Of a stretch of 64,000 bases of DNA, positions 52,741-59,537 are shown piece by piece. Each line of letters begins with the position of its first letter. Within the stretch, counting starts at the first letter, position 1. The DNA is taken from contig OY969559.1 of NCBI GenBank assembly GCA_963701075.1, positions 480,001 through 544,000 of the forward strand. Reading direction: 5' to 3'. Position numbers and translations under genes: made by a program. The notes beneath the pieces are model-generated. The model was not told the DNA's origin and ran no database searches. It saw nothing but the letters and a program-made list of their open reading frames with translations. Source of the stretch: an uncultured Nitrososphaerota archaeon. Lineage in GTDB: Archaea > Thermoproteota > Nitrososphaeria > Nitrososphaerales > Nitrosopumilaceae.

Positions 52741-53895
52741 GTGGAAAAGGTCTGTGTTATTGGTGCTGGCAGCACAAAATATGGCAAGCTGCAAGACAGT
52801 ATTACCGATATTGCACTTCAAGCATCTGTAGAAGCAATAGAGAGTGCAGGAATAGGACCAAAGCAAATCCAAGCTGGATACATATCAAATGTATTTGGTA
52901 TTGCAGACAAGCAAGTTCATTTGGGTCCAGTAATAATGAGTAACCTTGGCATCCCAGAAGTTCCATCATTATCAATCGAGTCTGCATGTGGAAGCGGTTC
53001 GGTATCATTTCGAGAAGCATATGCAAATGTAGCTGCAGGATTTTATGATGTAGTTTTAGCAACTGGTGTTGAAAAAGTAACTCACACTGGTACTGAATGG
53101 ACTACTACATACTTTTCTTATTGTTCTGATTTCTTTTATGAAGGAGGTGACGGCGCATCATTTCCGGGATTGTTTGCATCTATGGCAAGAGCATATCTTG
53201 CAGAGTTCAAAGCAACTGAAGAAGATCTTGCAATGGTTGCAGTAAAAAATCACGATAATGGTTTACTTAATCCAAAAGCACATCTTCGCAAAAAAATTAC
53301 TATCGATGATGTATTAAAATCAGCAGTAGTTGCAAGCCCGCTGAAGCTATATGACTGCTGTCCATTTTCAGATGGAGCAAGTGCTGTAATTTTGTGTAGC
53401 GAAAAATTTGCAAAGGCTCATTCAAAAAATTACATTGAAGTAATTGGATCAGGAAGGGGTGGCTCACCTGCTGCACTGCAAGGAAGAGAGCATATTACTA
53501 CAATTCCAAGTACCCAGATTGCAGCTCAAGCCGCATACAAGATGGCTGGAATCACTCCAAAGGATGTAGATTTTGCTGAAGTCCACGATTGTTTCACAAT
53601 TGCCGAACTAGTTGACACTGAAGATCTCGGATTCTTCGAAAAGGGACAAGCTGCACAAGCAGTACGAGAAGGAAGAACAAAACTCAATGCAGATATTTCT
53701 ATAAATCCATCAGGAGGCCTAAAGTCAAAGGGACACCCAATAGGGGCAACCGGAATAGGACAGGTAGCTGAAGTCTTTGATCAATTGACAGGAAAGGCAG
53801 GAGAAAGAACTGTCAAAGATGCAAAAATCGGGCTAACTCACAACTTTGGTGCAACTGGCGCAAGCTGCGCAGTTCATATTTTCAAAAGTGTATAA
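52741..53895 (+). CDS. Archaeal acetoacetyl-CoA thiolase
   Basis: ESACGSG, EVHDCF, NPSGGLKSKGHPIGATG. Confidence 0.95.
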   Translation: MEKVCVIGAGSTKYGKLQDSITDIALQASVEAIESAGIGPKQIQAGYISNVFGIADKQVHLGPVIMSNLGIPEVPSLSIESACGSGSVSFREAYANVAAGFYDVVLATGVEKVTHTGTEWTTTYFSYCSDFFYEGGDGASFPGLFASMARAYLAEFKATEEDLAMVAVKNHDNGLLNPKAHLRKKITIDDVLKSAVVASPLKLYDCCPFSDGASAVILCSEKFAKAHSKNYIEVIGSGRGGSPAALQGREHITTIPSTQIAAQAAYKMAGITPKDVDFAEVHDCFTIAELVDTEDLGFFEKGQAAQAVREGRTKLNADISINPSGGLKSKGHPIGATGIGQVAEVFDQLTGKAGERTVKDAKIGLTHNFGATGASCAVHIFKSV

Positions 53896-53897
53896 TT

Positions 53898-54264
53898 TTG
53901 CTATCTAAAGAGGAATTTATCACTAATGCAAAGGTAGGAAAGATATTAGCAAGAAAATGCACTAAATGTGGACATCCTCATCTGGTAACTACATACTTTT
54001 GCCAAAATTGTGGAAACAAGGGATTTGAGAATGTAATAATTGATGGCAAGGGCACAGTCAGCTACCTATACCATAATAACCGTCCCGCCAGAAGGTTTTG
54101 AGAAAGCTGTTCCATATGCCTGGGTTGTTATGAATGTGGATAATTTCGAATTACGAATTTCCGGCTTTATGGCAAATATCAAATCGCCAGCAGATCTGCC
54201 TTTGGGTACAAAAGTAAAGATAACCGGATATGATGAACACGGAATGATCATCGAAAAGCAGTAA
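53898..54264 (+). CDS. DUF35 Zn-ribbon/OB-fold thiolase partner (apparent frameshift at 54059)
   Basis: CTKCG...CQNCG; repaired GKGTVATYTIITVPPEGF. Confidence 0.9.
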
Positions 54265-54335
54265 ATCAATTTTACCGAGTTAATTAAAAAAAACTAGGAC
54301 ATTTCTTTTATAACATTATCTGAGATCCCTTCTTA

Positions 54336-54497
54336 ATGTCAGTAGATGTTGTATGTGACAAATGTGGATCTAAAATAGCAAACATGCGGATGTTAAAATC
54401 GATCAAAGATGTAATGCGACCATACAACAGCAAATGCCCATCCTGCGGTCAAACGTTGTCATCATCGGAATTTACTGTAGACGTGCAAAAGAACTGA
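54336..54497 (+). CDS. Zinc-ribbon microprotein, 53 aa (not in ORF track)
   Basis: MSVDVVCDKCGSKI...NSKCPSCGQTL; TTTTATAA about 25 bp upstream. Confidence 0.8.
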   Translation: MSVDVVCDKCGSKIANMRMLKSIKDVMRPYNSKCPSCGQTLSSSEFTVDVQKN

Positions 54498-54565
54498 TCT
54501 AAAAAGTTTGCGTATCGATCAAACTAGTCACAAATCTTATTTACCGACATCAAGTAGACTTTGCT

Positions 54566-56662
54566 ATGGAACTGAGTGAAGACTTTGGTGATCAAAAGCG
54601 AGGAGGAATTTTACAGTCTGCATCCAAGCGAGTAAGAATGATCTTTTCTGTCATGGCAAGCCCTAACAGAATAGATATTTTAAGAATCTTAAACTCAAAA
54701 GGTCCACTCACATATTCAGAACTAAAGTCACTTGCTGGATTCAAATCAAAGAAAGAAAGCGGCAAGTTTGCATATCATCTTCGAAAATTATTACGCCAGT
54801 CTCTTGTGGCCTTGAACAAGTCTGAGAGAAGATACACCATTACAAATTTGGGCAAATTAGTACTAAGTCTTGCCAGGCAGATCGAGGAACGCTCAATTAT
54901 TGAGAGCGGCAAGATGTACGTACGTACATCACACGAATCTATAGAGGAATTTAACTCTCATAAAATAATCCAGTCTCTTGTTCGGGAAGGAAGTCTGCCT
55001 CTTGAACTTGCACAAAAGATAACAGAAGAGGTTGAAAACCGCATATACAAATTCCAGACATCATATCTTACCTCTTCATTAATACGTGAAATGGTCAATT
55101 CCGTGCTTTTGGAGCAAGGCCATGAGGACTATAGGCACAAACTAACACGATTTGGCCTTCCTGGATATGATATACATGAATTGCTGACTAATGTGGACGG
55201 TATCCATAACGGGGTGGAAGGTATGCTATTTAAAACAGGTCAAACCGTTTTCGGGGAGTATCTGGTATTGAACACACTGCCCAAGGATGTTGCTGATTCT
55301 CATCTTTCAGGCGATATTCATATTACAAACGCTGGTTTGTGGTCACTTCTTCCTGATACCATATTTGTAAACATCAAGGAGTTGATAGAAGACGGCATTG
55401 ATCTACGAGGCAAATTCTTGGGAGTAACAAGAACATCTGCTCCAAACTCTCTTGATGATCTGTCTACCTCTCTTTCAATTATAACATCACTTCTTATCAA
55501 AGAGGCCTCTCAGGAGGTTGTTATTGACGGACTGGTAGGATTATTACAAAAATATCCAAAAAATATGTCAGAAATTGAAGAAAAAATTGCAAATTCTTTT
55601 GCCAAAATATCTACTGCGCCTAAATATGGAAAAAATGAAGCGCTCGCATCGTTCAGAATTTCACTAGGCACAGAACCAAAACTTGTCGGCTCTATTCTTG
55701 CTGCCTATAAAAAATATGTAAAATCTACACCTTTGCCATCAATAGGCATCATAATAGATTATGAAAAAGGAAAGATTAACGAGTTTTCCGATATTCTGTC
55801 TGACATTATTGCATTAGGAGGGCGTGTAATGTTCTCAAAGGGATTGGCATCAAGCAAAGGTCTCTTTAAGGGAGATGCAAAGAGCACTTCGGTTACCTCA
55901 ATTAACTTGCAATCTTTGTCGATCAATATGCCACGACTTGCATTTGAATCAAACAAAGATGAAACTTACTTTAGGGCAAGGCTGGCATTGTTAATGAAAC
56001 CTGCTCTAGCAGCAATGTCTATACGAAAAAAGGAGATATCTGATCTTACGCGTAGAGGACTCAACCCGATCCTTGCAAATAATACGCAGTACATGCAAAA
56101 GGGTTCAGTTACATTAGTTGTTAATTTGTTAGGACTAAAGGAAGCAGTTTATGGAATACTCGGTTATGAGAATAACAAGGCTGGACAGGAAATTTTGGCA
56201 AAAGTTATAGCTACTGCTATTGAGGTGGCAGCCAAGAAAGGAAAAGAAATGGGTGACAATGTTACAATTTCTATAACTGAAAGTGATGCATCTGCTCGCT
56301 TTTCTTCATTGGATGGTGAAAAGTACGGTAAAATGTCAATTCATCCGCACGTAGAAGGTGAATCCTATTCGGAAGGAGTTACTATTGACGCCTCAGAAAT
56401 TGATGGAATGACTCCTAAGAGTGAAAAGATAGTCGAATCTAACCATCTTTCAAAGATGCTTAACGGCGGAGTACTAGTCCAACTCAAGATTCCAGACGCA
56501 ATGGATTCCTCAGGAATTAAGAAAGCAATAGAAAAAGCTGGAGAATTATTAGGTTCATTTAGGCCAATCAAAAAGGTGCCTATTTGTAGCAACTGCGGAC
56601 TTAAAGAAGAAACGATTGCAGAAAAATGCCCTGTCTGCAAATCGCCTTACATCCTAGCATAG
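54566..56662 (+). CDS. Winged-helix + ATP-cone + degenerate class III RNR (NrdD-like) fusion
   Basis: SPNRIDILRIL...AYHLRKL wHTH; VRTSHESIEEFNSHKI ATP cone; HLSGDIHI, SINMPRLA, GLKEA; terminal CxxC/CxxC; no RxxGY. Confidence 0.85.
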   Translation: MELSEDFGDQKRGGILQSASKRVRMIFSVMASPNRIDILRILNSKGPLTYSELKSLAGFKSKKESGKFAYHLRKLLRQSLVALNKSERRYTITNLGKLVLSLARQIEERSIIESGKMYVRTSHESIEEFNSHKIIQSLVREGSLPLELAQKITEEVENRIYKFQTSYLTSSLIREMVNSVLLEQGHEDYRHKLTRFGLPGYDIHELLTNVDGIHNGVEGMLFKTGQTVFGEYLVLNTLPKDVADSHLSGDIHITNAGLWSLLPDTIFVNIKELIEDGIDLRGKFLGVTRTSAPNSLDDLSTSLSIITSLLIKEASQEVVIDGLVGLLQKYPKNMSEIEEKIANSFAKISTAPKYGKNEALASFRISLGTEPKLVGSILAAYKKYVKSTPLPSIGIIIDYEKGKINEFSDILSDIIALGGRVMFSKGLASSKGLFKGDAKSTSVTSINLQSLSINMPRLAFESNKDETYFRARLALLMKPALAAMSIRKKEISDLTRRGLNPILANNTQYMQKGSVTLVVNLLGLKEAVYGILGYENNKAGQEILAKVIATAIEVAAKKGKEMGDNVTISITESDASARFSSLDGEKYGKMSIHPHVEGESYSEGVTIDASEIDGMTPKSEKIVESNHLSKMLNGGVLVQLKIPDAMDSSGIKKAIEKAGELLGSFRPIKKVPICSNCGLKEETIAEKCPVCKSPYILA

Positions 56663-56703
56663 CCGGCACATTTCCAGAATAAAAAAATTAGAAAATATTA
56701 TTG

Positions 56704-56719
56704 AATTTGTTCACAAATT
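56704..56719. promoter_or_regulatory. Inverted repeat AATTTGT-N2-ACAAATT upstream of nrdJ
   Basis: Perfect 7-bp arms in the intergenic region; function inferred only. Confidence 0.35.
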
Positions 56720-56879
56720 TTCACAGAATTCTTTTACGATTATATTGACGTATGGCGATCTATTACTATGAAAATCATAATGGTGTCAACAAAATTGATG
56801 CAAAGCTCAGCAATGCGAAAAAAAATTTTGCCGCAGACTTTATTTAACTCTCGTTTGATACTGGTACGGGGAGTGTAAA

Positions 56880-59537
56880 ATGACAGATTTTTCACAAATA
56901 GAGAATTCGATCATCGATGTAAAGAAGCGTGACGGCCGCGTATCTTCGTTCCAGAAGGATAAAATTTCAAACGCGATCTATAAAGCACTAGTAGCTTGTG
57001 GTAGGCCAGATCATGGATCAGCCGATAAACTAGCAAATCGTGTTATGGAAAAACTTGTGACTCATGGTTATTCGTCTTCAGCGTTACCAAGCGTAGAAGA
57101 TGTTCAAGATATGGTAGAATCAACCCTAATTGATGAAGGATTAGGGGAGATCGCTAAAGCATACATACTGTATAGACACGAACGCAGAAAGGTACGAGAA
57201 GAGAAATCAAAGGTACTTGAATCCACTACTCTTGATTCTGTTGCCAAGAAATTTGATCTTAATTGCCTTAGAGTCCTTGCCTCTAGATATCTACTCAGAA
57301 ACAACAAGGGCCAGATAACTGAAAGTCCTGGTGAGATGTTTGAAAGAGTTGCAACGCTTGTTGGAATCTCTGATGTTCTAAAAGATCCCTCTATCTTTAA
57401 TGTGGAGAGAGGTAACACACAAAATACAGAGGAAGCAGCAAAATATCTAGACAAGCTGGATGACTTTAACTGCAAATTCAAAATAGGAAAATATTATCTC
57501 AGCAAATATCACTTTAGATCACTAATACAGCACTACATTGACCTTGCCAAACGGGGCCAGATGAAGGTTAGCATCAAAGAATTTCTTACAATGCTGGCAG
57601 CAAACAAGTTCGAACAACATGCTGAAAGAATCAACGAATATTATGAAATGATGGCTTCTCAAGACTTTCTACCAAATTCTCCTACAATGATGAATGCAGG
57701 AGCACGACTTGGACAACTTTCTGCCTGTTTTGTGCTTGCAATGCCTGATGACATGGAAAAGATAATGAAGTCATCTTCTGACGCTGCTTTGATATTCAAA
57801 TCAGGCGGTGGTGTTGGTATCAATTATTCTGACTTGAGGCCAGAAGGAGATATGGTTGCATCAACATCGGGAGTTGCATCAGGCCCAGTCTCTTTCATGA
57901 ATATAATTAACACTGTTACAGAAGTGGTCAAGCAGGGAGGAAAACGAAGGGGTGCAAACATGGGAATCATAGAGTCATGGCATCCAGATATTGAGAAATT
58001 CATTACTGCTAAAACAAAGCCAGGTGTACTAGAGAACTTTAATGTAAGTGTAGGAGTCTGGGAAGACTTTTGGGAAGCATTGGTAAATTCACAAGATGGC
58101 AAATACACACTACGAAGTCCTCTGGACATGTCACCAGTCCGAGAAGTAAATGCGCATCATATTATTGATTTGATAGCACTATCTGCATGGAAGAGTGCAG
58201 AACCTGGATTGATCTTCTTTGATATAATCAACAAGTACAATGTATTTGCAAAGGCTCGCGGCGCACCACTTCGTGCAACAAATCCTTGTGGGGAACAAAG
58301 CTTGTATCCATACGAATCCTGCAATCTGGGATCAATCAATCTGGCTAACTTTGTAAAGAGAAAGGCAGATGGACAATACGAATTTGACTGGCAAAGATAT
58401 GAAGAAGCAATTAGAAAAACGACCAGATTCCTAGACAATATAATTGATGTCAACAACTATCCAATTCCAGAAATAGATCAGGCATCTAAGGACTCTAGAA
58501 GAATAGGGCTTGGAGTAATGGGAGTTGCCGACCTGTTATTCAAACTAAGGATCCCATACAATTCACAAGAAGGATATGAATTCCAAGAAAAATTAGCCGA
58601 GGCATTAACCTATTATTCTACAGAAGAAAGCATTGCACTTGCAAAAACACGAGGACCGTTTCCACTATGTTCAAAAACAGAATATCCCGAAGGGAAGATT
58701 CCAGTGGCAGGTTATTATGAAAAACCAAAGAATACTCGCACCTATGACTGGGATGCCTTGATAACAAAGATCCAAAAGCATGGAATCAGAAATGTTCTCA
58801 CCACTACAGTAGCACCCACTGGAACCTTGTCCATGATTGCAGATTGCTCCAACGGAATGGAACCAATGTTTGCACTAGTATTTGAAAAGCGAGTAACCGT
58901 AGGAAGATTCTTCTACACAAACAAGATATTTGAAGCAGTTCTCAAGGAACATGGCCTATACAGTGATCAGTTACTGGAAAAGATTGCAAATAACTATGGT
59001 TCAGTAAAAGGAATCCCAGAGATTCCAGAATGGATGCAGAAAATCTTTGTCACAGCAATGGACATTCACTGGACAGATCACCTGATGGCACAGGGTGTAT
59101 GGCAAAGATGGATAGGAAATGCCATAGCAAAGACAATCAATATGCCAAACGATGTATCATCTGACGATGTAAAGGCCGCATATCTGTTAGCACATGAACT
59201 CGGACTAAAGGGAATCACTGTATACAGAGACGGCTCAAGACATGAACAGGTACTTCACATGACAGGCGATGACGTACAAAAGACATTCCAAGTTACCCCT
59301 AGCGCGTATGTAACTGATTACATTTCAAAGAATATCACAAACGCTTATCTGAGAGTCCAAGTGGAGCGAGCACTTCAGATCAAGATTCCAGAAAGTGGAG
59401 TCATGCAATTGCCGCCAAAACTTACGGCTGAACAAATTGAAGAGATGCTATGTCCAACATGTAAAAATGCACTTGTGTTCGCAGAAGGCTGTAACATATG
59501 CATTGAATGTGGATACAGTGGATGCACATCTGGATAG
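56880..59537 (+). CDS. nrdJ: Class II (AdoCbl) ribonucleotide reductase with ATP cone
   Basis: VKKRDGR, PNSPTMMNAG, LSACFV, TNPCGEQ, VAPTGT, TVYRDGS. Confidence 0.96.
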   Translation: MTDFSQIENSIIDVKKRDGRVSSFQKDKISNAIYKALVACGRPDHGSADKLANRVMEKLVTHGYSSSALPSVEDVQDMVESTLIDEGLGEIAKAYILYRHERRKVREEKSKVLESTTLDSVAKKFDLNCLRVLASRYLLRNNKGQITESPGEMFERVATLVGISDVLKDPSIFNVERGNTQNTEEAAKYLDKLDDFNCKFKIGKYYLSKYHFRSLIQHYIDLAKRGQMKVSIKEFLTMLAANKFEQHAERINEYYEMMASQDFLPNSPTMMNAGARLGQLSACFVLAMPDDMEKIMKSSSDAALIFKSGGGVGINYSDLRPEGDMVASTSGVASGPVSFMNIINTVTEVVKQGGKRRGANMGIIESWHPDIEKFITAKTKPGVLENFNVSVGVWEDFWEALVNSQDGKYTLRSPLDMSPVREVNAHHIIDLIALSAWKSAEPGLIFFDIINKYNVFAKARGAPLRATNPCGEQSLYPYESCNLGSINLANFVKRKADGQYEFDWQRYEEAIRKTTRFLDNIIDVNNYPIPEIDQASKDSRRIGLGVMGVADLLFKLRIPYNSQEGYEFQEKLAEALTYYSTEESIALAKTRGPFPLCSKTEYPEGKIPVAGYYEKPKNTRTYDWDALITKIQKHGIRNVLTTTVAPTGTLSMIADCSNGMEPMFALVFEKRVTVGRFFYTNKIFEAVLKEHGLYSDQLLEKIANNYGSVKGIPEIPEWMQKIFVTAMDIHWTDHLMAQGVWQRWIGNAIAKTINMPNDVSSDDVKAAYLLAHELGLKGITVYRDGSRHEQVLHMTGDDVQKTFQVTPSAYVTDYISKNITNAYLRVQVERALQIKIPESGVMQLPPKLTAEQIEEMLCPTCKNALVFAEGCNICIECGYSGCTSG

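Follow-up and report, generated by a model that had tools for sequence, protein, structure and literature searches.

We analyzed a 64,000-nucleotide window of contig OY969559.1 (assembly GCA_963701075.1, positions 480,001 to 544,000) from an uncultured archaeon of the Nitrosopumilaceae, class Nitrososphaeria; all coordinates below are those of the window. Our subject is a gene that encodes a 698-amino-acid (aa) protein and is followed by nrdJ, the gene for a class II ribonucleotide reductase (RNR). The protein carries a winged helix-turn-helix (HTH) in front of the body of a class III RNR (NrdD) that has lost its catalytic residues, and it is probably a transcription factor dedicated to RNR genes. 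The two genes and the domains of the candidate regulator are as follows.

54566..56662, + strand: candidate RNR regulator, 698 aa, ATG start, with HTH, ATP-cone and catalytically dead NrdD-like barrel
54641..54865, + strand: ArsR-type winged helix-turn-helix, aa 26-100 (Pfam DUF7347 and HTH_20)
54914..55132, + strand: divergent ATP-cone, aa 117-189 (Pfam), with VRTS in place of the canonical V-x-K-R-D-G
55214..56545, + strand: NrdD-like alpha/beta barrel that lacks the radical and the second Cys, the HxHD motif and the NxN flap (hhalign, column counts)
56585..56638, + strand: C-terminal Zn ribbon, Cys 674, 677, 688 and 691 (residue positions, NrdD alignment)
56880..59537, + strand: nrdJ, adenosylcobalamin-dependent class II RNR; ATP-cone at the N-terminus, Cys-rich tail at the C-terminus (Pfam, NCBIfam)

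The N-terminal part of the 698-aa protein matches two Pfam families above their cut-offs, DUF7347 (PF24038, aa 26-100, 41 bits vs. a cut-off of 27.6) and HTH_20 (PF12840, aa 30-82, 32.9 vs. 27 bits), the former being listed by Pfam as a domain of unknown function. The same winged helix scores 23.9 bits with the NCBIfam metalloregulator model, below the cut-off of 55. It is followed by an ATP-cone (PF03477, aa 117-189, 37.7 vs. 25.8 bits) and by two stretches that match the NRDD family (PF13597), namely aa ∼217-307, which correspond to profile positions 9-95, and aa 415-693, which correspond to positions 260-529 of 562 (91 bits vs. a cut-off of 26.2). The profile of the 83-member protein family matches solved NrdD structures with E-values from 7e-41 to 1e-32. 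Its comparison with a small profile of true NrdDs using hhalign gave a probability of 100 and an E-value of 1.5e-59, with 620 aligned columns that begin at the ATP-cone and extend to the C-terminus; therefore, the whole NrdD body is present, with an extra HTH in front. With the NrdD equivalog model TIGR02487 the protein scores 79.2 bits, below the cut-off of 326.35. The downstream open reading frame (ORF; 56880-59537) encodes a class II NrdJ (TIGR02504, 742 bits vs. a cut-off of 400), which likewise has an ATP-cone. The Cys-rich tail at the C-terminus of this NrdJ (59400-59537, + strand) has CxxC motifs that resemble a Zn ribbon or a redox tail.

To describe the catalytic elements we built an alignment of the protein, E. 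coli NrdD and true archaeal NrdDs encoded in genomes of its class, and counted residues by column in the 83 family members and 6 true NrdDs. The catalytic residues of E. coli NrdD, which we take to be those numbered 175, 384 and 681, have the expected letters in this alignment. The only four Cys of the 698-aa protein (674, 677, 688 and 691) all belong to the Zn ribbon. At the position of the second catalytic Cys, which lies on the first strand of the barrel, a Cys occurs in none of the 83 family members and in all 6 true NrdDs. The tip of the finger loop reads SSKGL in the window protein versus SMCCRL in archaeal NrdD, and 80 of the 83 members have no Cys in the 'CC' columns, the three members with one being scattered. 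The window protein has H-I-T-N in place of HxHD; 60 of the 83 members retain the first His, and the column of the second His is most commonly occupied by Ser (22), Pro (10) and Asn (9), followed by Thr, Ala and Cys (6 each). The NxN flap stretch of true NrdDs is deleted in the window protein according to the alignment. The protein contains no RxxG[YF] motif and ends 7 residues past the last ribbon Cys, without a glycyl-radical domain; in the family, the Gly-radical column consists of 36 gaps and 12 Gly among other residues, and the following Tyr occurs in just one member. The NLPR motif is retained (Asn in 81, Pro in 79 and Arg in 75 of the 83 members), as are the four Zn-binding Cys of NrdD. 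The roles of the radical Cys, the HxHD motif (binding of the substrate triphosphate), the NxN flap and the radical loop in NrdD are described in the accessible part of PMC11226230.

The regulator gene is under strong purifying selection. Its ratio of nonsynonymous to synonymous substitution rates (dN/dS) against four relatives is about 0.03-0.045, an approximate value as dS is saturated. Comparison with genome G074 gave dN values of 0.014 for the HTH, 0.028 for the cone and linker, 0.124 for the barrel and 0.023 for the ribbon; thus, the HTH is the slowest-evolving domain and the barrel is the fastest, with a dN ∼9 times that of the HTH and a dN/dS of about 0.05-0.07. The recognition-helix stretch GKFAYHLRKL is nearly invariant among the 83 sequences (H71 is invariant, and G66, F68, Y70, L72 and L75 are conserved in at least 90%). 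In distant relatives, identity is ∼50% over the first 275 residues vs. ∼30% in the barrel. This pattern fits a protein in which the HTH and the cone would form the functional core, and the barrel would be a dimerizing, signal-modulating body.

The regulator is nearly universal in the class. A match was found in 137 of the 151 sampled genomes, including 110 of the 111 high-quality ones, and broken copies are rare, with stop codons within the match seen in G141 and G149 (all class-genome counts, i.e. presence, synteny, true NrdD and pattern matches, take in the unpublished genome G132). True NrdDs scored over the cut-off in 8 of the 151 genomes, all from basal families. Four genomes (G013, G017, G021 and G095) have both a true NrdD and the dead form; thus, the dead form is a paralog with its own role. 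Outside the sampled class genomes, we kept the best 80 bathyarchaeal loci from a scan in which 583 of 600 stretches were confirmed. Further relatives are found, by source names, in Aigarchaeota/Caldarchaeum and Odinarchaeia, and the ESM Atlas offers, as leads only, clusters of Promethearchaeota and Nanobdellota with the same domain pairing. Longer relatives of about 740-770 aa, bathyarchaeal by record titles, have a degenerate radical tail. In an unrooted tree of 50 sequences, in which the 34 HTH forms were chosen from ∼110 long family sequences, one branch (SH-aLRT, the Shimodaira-Hasegawa-like approximate likelihood ratio test, 100) separates all 16 true NrdDs from all 34 HTH forms. This split rejects an origin of the regulator as a recent tandem duplicate of a neighboring NrdD.

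We further searched the rest of the 1.916-Mb genome for RNR-related genes. No ORF in the whole genome reached the cut-offs of the two models for the NrdG activase (best scores 39.1 vs. 126.1 and 47.6 vs. 131.15 bits), and the best radical-SAM (S-adenosylmethionine) ORF in this search has its top score as QueE-like. The NrdR model TIGR00244 likewise had no match above its cut-off genome-wide, the best score being 18.8 vs. 124.65 bits and belonging to another ORF. The product of nrdJ is the sole PF02867 barrel in the genome, and the sole PF13597 match is the 698-aa ORF; the genome has one real RNR, NrdJ. The identification of the 698-aa protein as a class III RNR is ruled out by the missing radical Cys, second Cys, HxHD motif, radical loop and NrdG. 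A third ATP-cone in the genome lies outside the window (G000:C1:1119880-1120095, 46.6 bits) in a 288-aa open frame. This protein may be 2-phosphoglycerate-kinase-like, a label based on weak NCBIfam matches of the 2-phosphoglycerate-kinase family to the two cone regions of the window.

It is well supported that the 698-aa protein is a pseudoenzyme, since every catalytic element tested is lost while the gene is under purifying selection, and this assignment agrees with the first-pass annotation of the locus. That annotation had described a winged helix, an ATP-cone and an NrdD-like barrel, on which Pfam and hhalign concur, and had placed all Cys in the Zn ribbon and the end of the protein ahead of the RxxGY loop, as borne out by the Cys positions and the motif scan. 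The alignment with E. coli and archaeal NrdDs confirmed the loss of the catalytic Cys and Gly, and the counts in 83 members extend this loss to the wider family. The absence of nrdG, which had been noted for the window, holds for the whole genome at the model cut-offs. Finally, homologs had been expected to be annotated as anaerobic RNR. Such names are indeed present in the sources ('anaerobic ribonucleoside-triphosphate reductase'), beside 'ArsR family transcriptional regulator' and 'HTH domain protein'.

The tandem arrangement with nrdJ that the first-pass annotation had seen in the window is the prevalent one in Nitrososphaeria. Among 126 strong hits, the regulator lies in tandem upstream of nrdJ within 1 kb in 81 (80 of 125 without G132), with gaps of 116-862 bp and a median of 222 bp. 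In 9 other cases the two genes are convergent within 1 kb, and in 2 they are divergent; no nrdJ place is listed for 12 of the 126 hits. Among the 80 bathyarchaeal loci, a same-strand RNR gene is located downstream of the regulator in 33 (30 nrdD and 3 nrdJ), and none has an RNR gene upstream. When the downstream sequence extends for at least 1.5 kb, an RNR gene follows at 32 of 63 loci by hand count. Every complete bathyarchaeal nrdD neighbor encodes the RxxG[YF] motif. In Candidatus Bathyarchaeum tardum (by record title), the gene order is regulator, glutaredoxin, nrdD. Therefore, the linkage of the regulator to RNR genes of two classes, nrdJ across Nitrososphaeria and nrdD or nrdJ in Bathyarchaeia, is well supported.

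Two features of the neighboring RNRs were observed in addition. The true NrdD encoded after glutaredoxin in Bathyarchaeia (L071:8789-10990 and similar loci) has a weak ATP-cone that scores below the cut-off (23.1 bits), and the hairpin of this cone has G-T-D-G for K-R-D-G, which recalls the altered cone of the regulator. In several relatives (G053:C6:6549-10283, G084:C79, G129:C1:1106432-1110094, G027, G055, G033 and G025), the match to NrdJ is divided into two parts (about residues 2-471 and 467-885 of the query) within one open frame of ∼1040-1280 aa, which suggests an intein-like insertion near residue 470; nrdJ of the window has no such insertion.

The regulator and nrdJ are separated in the window by a 217-bp spacer (56663-56879). 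By comparing 21 regulator-nrdJ intergenic regions, we identified the following non-coding elements in this spacer; a promoter-like element upstream of the regulator gene, conserved in most of 21 aligned upstream regions, is also given.

54526..54545, + strand: BRE/TATA (B recognition element and TATA box) promoter-like element located ∼20-25 nt ahead of the regulator ATG (presumed function)
56762..56804, + strand: conserved non-coding block, candidate operator, with two imperfect inverted repeats (intergenic alignment)
56767-56779, + strand: inverted repeat TATGA-N3-TCATA in the conserved block (alignment)
56785-56799, + strand: inverted repeat GTCAA-N5-TTGAT in the conserved block (alignment)
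56839..56847, + strand: TATA-box-like TTTATTTAA of nrdJ (conserved columns; presumed function)
56868..56873, + strand: GGGGAG, putative Shine-Dalgarno-like element, 6 nt before the nrdJ ATG

The conserved block upstream of the nrdJ TATA box is common to Nitrosopumilaceae in the spacer alignment, and is followed by a conserved T-run, GCC, the TATA-like TTTATTTAA, GGGGAG and the nrdJ ATG, in this order. A model of the block found a single match in the genome (nhmmer, E-value 1e-5), a result that is partly so by construction. A pattern derived from the block matches in 79 of 121 family genomes, about as frequently as the reversed control (this set includes G203, which is outside the following subset). 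In the 48 genomes with a known place of the regulator, 14 of the 53 pattern matches are located 91-114 bp past the regulator stop on the same strand, vs. a chance expectation of about 0.01 by our own estimate; 8 of these 14 matches are in the 36 genomes that were not used for pattern design. Outside Nitrosopumilaceae, short words such as GGTGT, TGTAT and GTATAC were not convincingly enriched (P of 0.016-0.55 vs. mononucleotide shuffles, for words picked post hoc and without correction for multiple tests). Rfam had no match in the region 54000-57200 at E-values up to 1; thus, a known riboswitch or leader is not indicated. Contigs of relatives from a soil RNA library cover parts of both genes, and none of them runs across the spacer, which is bridged by a probable DNA run; the read evidence from the two runs, each with a small share, shows neither transcription nor operon structure. 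A second ∼90-bp copy of the nrdJ promoter region, with block and TATA, was observed in one relative (G082:C1:957094-957185, L122). It is located 300 kb from nrdJ beside the gene of a 621-aa membrane protein, with no RNR gene after it.

We propose that the 698-aa protein is a transcription factor dedicated to RNR genes and a functional analog of NrdR, which we consider reasonably probable. It would have originated from the alpha subunit of a class III RNR that lost its radical chemistry and was turned into a transcription factor. The N-terminal ArsR-type winged helix would most likely recognize an operator located ahead of the nrdJ promoter in the 217-bp spacer, and may do so in the form of an NrdD-like dimer; such DNA binding is suggested by the domain matches and by the conserved block upstream of nrdJ. 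The ATP-cone, the linker and the dead barrel would probably make up the signal-receiving, oligomerizing body of the protein, so that nrdJ transcription may respond to the cellular nucleotide state. In such a role, the protein would serve in archaea as the functional equivalent of the bacterial NrdR, in a genome with no NrdR over the cut-off. As for the sign of regulation, the location of the block ahead of the nrdJ TATA box, taken by itself, leans to activation or architectural control over NrdR-like occlusion.

The altered ATP-cone bears on the possible ligand. The position of the canonical Lys-Arg pair is occupied by Thr121-Ser122 in the window protein, with Thr in 68 and Ser in 76 of the 83 family members. 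The preceding Arg120 is kept in 82 of 83, and Arg120, Arg190 and Arg195 are each at least 90% conserved in the family. In PcNrdD, according to the accessible part of PMC11226230, the triphosphates are coordinated by residues that include Lys7 and Arg8. Therefore, it would be premature to assume that the regulator senses ATP/dATP as NrdR does, and the cone may bind a nucleotide in another way, or something else. The NrdR analogy drawn in the first-pass annotation is thus upheld in part: the pseudoenzyme state, the linkage to RNR genes and the lack of NrdR in the genome speak for it, and its sensing component cannot simply be carried over to a cone without Lys-Arg. It can be speculated, as a possible but tentative extension, that the dead barrel still binds effector deoxynucleoside triphosphates (dNTPs), at what used to be the specificity site of the NrdD dimer, and that an additional nucleotide is bound by the altered cone, so that the balance of several (d)NTPs would be read into promoter occupancy by an allosteric RNR that serves purely as a sensor. 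Since the family occurs in Nitrososphaeria (including Aigarchaeota-labelled members), Bathyarchaeia and Odinarchaeia, such a sensor would represent an ancient, archaea-wide control of RNR genes, independent of NrdR.

Several observations weigh against a dedicated, NrdR-like regulator of RNR genes. The cone is without the canonical Lys-Arg pair that contacts triphosphates, and a block that precedes the TATA box is not by itself suggestive of NrdR-like repression. The evidence for the operator is conservation among relatives rather than independent events, and a block model built without the four closest genomes ranks the nrdJ site second in the genome with an E-value of 2.6. No similar block was found upstream of the regulator's own gene by the model search and in the 21 aligned regions. 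No motif common to Nitrosopumilaceae, Nitrososphaeraceae and Bathyarchaeia was found, despite the near-invariant recognition helix. With respect to linkage, the regulator and nrdJ are on different contigs in 21 of the 126 strong hits and 2 Mb apart in G117, the families f7 and f9 are without regulator-nrdJ adjacency, and an RNR neighbor is lacking at about half of those bathyarchaeal loci whose flanking sequence is long enough. A recognition helix that is nearly invariant across classes, when no shared operator was found by RNR genes across clades, together with the lack of adjacency in f7, f9 and about half of the bathyarchaeal loci, would be expected of a DNA-binding protein that controls a broader set of genes or another one (for example DNA replication, repair or the cell cycle), with nrdJ as one target or a historical accident. 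We find this doubtful, as the block upstream of nrdJ has no second significant copy in the genome, and the linkage follows the RNR class of the organism, nrdJ or nrdD.

The protein could also act on the real RNR without affecting transcription, for instance as a subunit with an allosteric or scaffolding role or as a buffer of nucleotides; the HTH would then mediate a different contact. Pseudoenzymes often regulate active paralogs, and both the tandem with true NrdD in Bathyarchaeia, sometimes with a glutaredoxin gene between, and the retention of the NLPR motif and the NrdD Zn ribbon are in line with such a partnership. However, in Nitrososphaeria it would have to pair with a class II RNR, which belongs to a different family, constraint within the protein is strongest on the HTH, and the true NrdDs form a clade apart from all HTH forms, which makes this role quite unlikely. 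A residual enzymatic function, by a chemistry independent of thiyl and glycyl radicals, is very improbable. The conservation of the NLPR residues and of the first His of HxHD in most members, as well as the constraint on the barrel, would agree with it; against it stand the lack of Cys outside the Zn ribbon in the window protein, the degenerate or absent HxHD motif, NxN flap and radical domain, the lack of an activase over the cut-off, and a barrel that evolves about 9 times faster than the HTH. The loss of catalytic residues and of the C-terminal domain could be expected if the gene were the decaying, functionless relic of an anaerobic RNR, but the chance of this is negligible, and a decaying pseudogene is contradicted by the intact frame, the low dN/dS, the presence in nearly all high-quality genomes and the rarity of broken copies. 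Thus, an RNR-dedicated transcription factor is the reading that we favor.

Because NrdR is rare in archaea, as indicated in the accessible parts of PMC9110341 and PMC12176259, the control of RNR transcription in these organisms is an open question, and the regulator described here is a concrete, expressible candidate for this role. Its carriers include nearly all sampled ammonia-oxidizing archaea and many Bathyarchaeia, both of which are very abundant groups. If our proposal is true, the protein would clearly exemplify the reuse of an allosterically regulated radical enzyme for the control of genes. The present analysis also corrects a widespread annotation error: the 'anaerobic RNR' label in these aerobes is uninformative on anaerobic dNTP synthesis, and metabolic reconstructions that count a class III RNR from it are therefore wrong. 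We found no published description of a dead-NrdD HTH protein in a literature search with supplements and subscription journals outside its scope, and an earlier mention is possible. By keyword, the accessible text of the RNR-family surveys PMC9669993 and PMC9531940 has no mention of an HTH-NrdD protein, and a keyword look-up in that of PMC3019208 and PMC4390871 found no description of one.

Two further observations concern the genes upstream of the regulator. A DUF35/ChsH2-type gene (53904-54261, + strand), located after a thiolase gene (52741-53895), is split over two frames, with zf-ChsH2 up to 54101 in one frame and OB_ChsH2_C from 54040 in another, which could reflect a frameshift, a sequencing error or recoding. 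A small ORF of ∼53 aa with two CxxC pairs (54336-54497, + strand) ends 68 bp before the regulator ATG, and the coding sequence of its C-terminus is conserved at the same place in most of the 21 aligned related genomes.

The candidate regulator shares features with four known systems. Like DUF7347 and ArsR-SmtB regulators, it has N-terminal 75-80 residues that match DUF7347 and HTH_20 above the cut-offs; unlike them, it is below the NCBIfam metalloregulator cut-off, and its C-terminal 600 residues are unrelated to ArsR proteins. With NrdD (structures 9d3x, 8p23, 4coi and 1h78) it shares the collinear ATP-cone, barrel and Zn ribbon, including NLPR and the four Zn-binding Cys, whereas the radical Cys, second Cys, HxHD, NxN flap and Gly-Tyr loop are absent, an extra N-terminal HTH is present, and the genome has no activase over the cut-off. 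The archaeal RbkR, a riboflavin kinase with an HTH described in the accessible part of PMC5397151, provides another example of a winged helix fused to an enzyme fold of the controlled pathway; however, RbkR is bifunctional with an active kinase, whereas the enzyme part of the present regulator is dead. The bacterial RNR-specific repressor NrdR, composed of a Zn ribbon and an ATP-cone, binds DNA by this ribbon rather than by an ArsR-type winged helix, and occupies sites over the transcription start, whereas the candidate site described here is upstream of the TATA box. The candidate regulator is ∼4 times longer than NrdR, with a whole dead NrdD barrel and a cone without the Lys-Arg pair. Nevertheless, both proteins have a DNA-binding domain fused to an ATP-cone, both are often encoded beside RNR genes, and their presumed task is the same, namely to match RNR transcription to the nucleotide pools.

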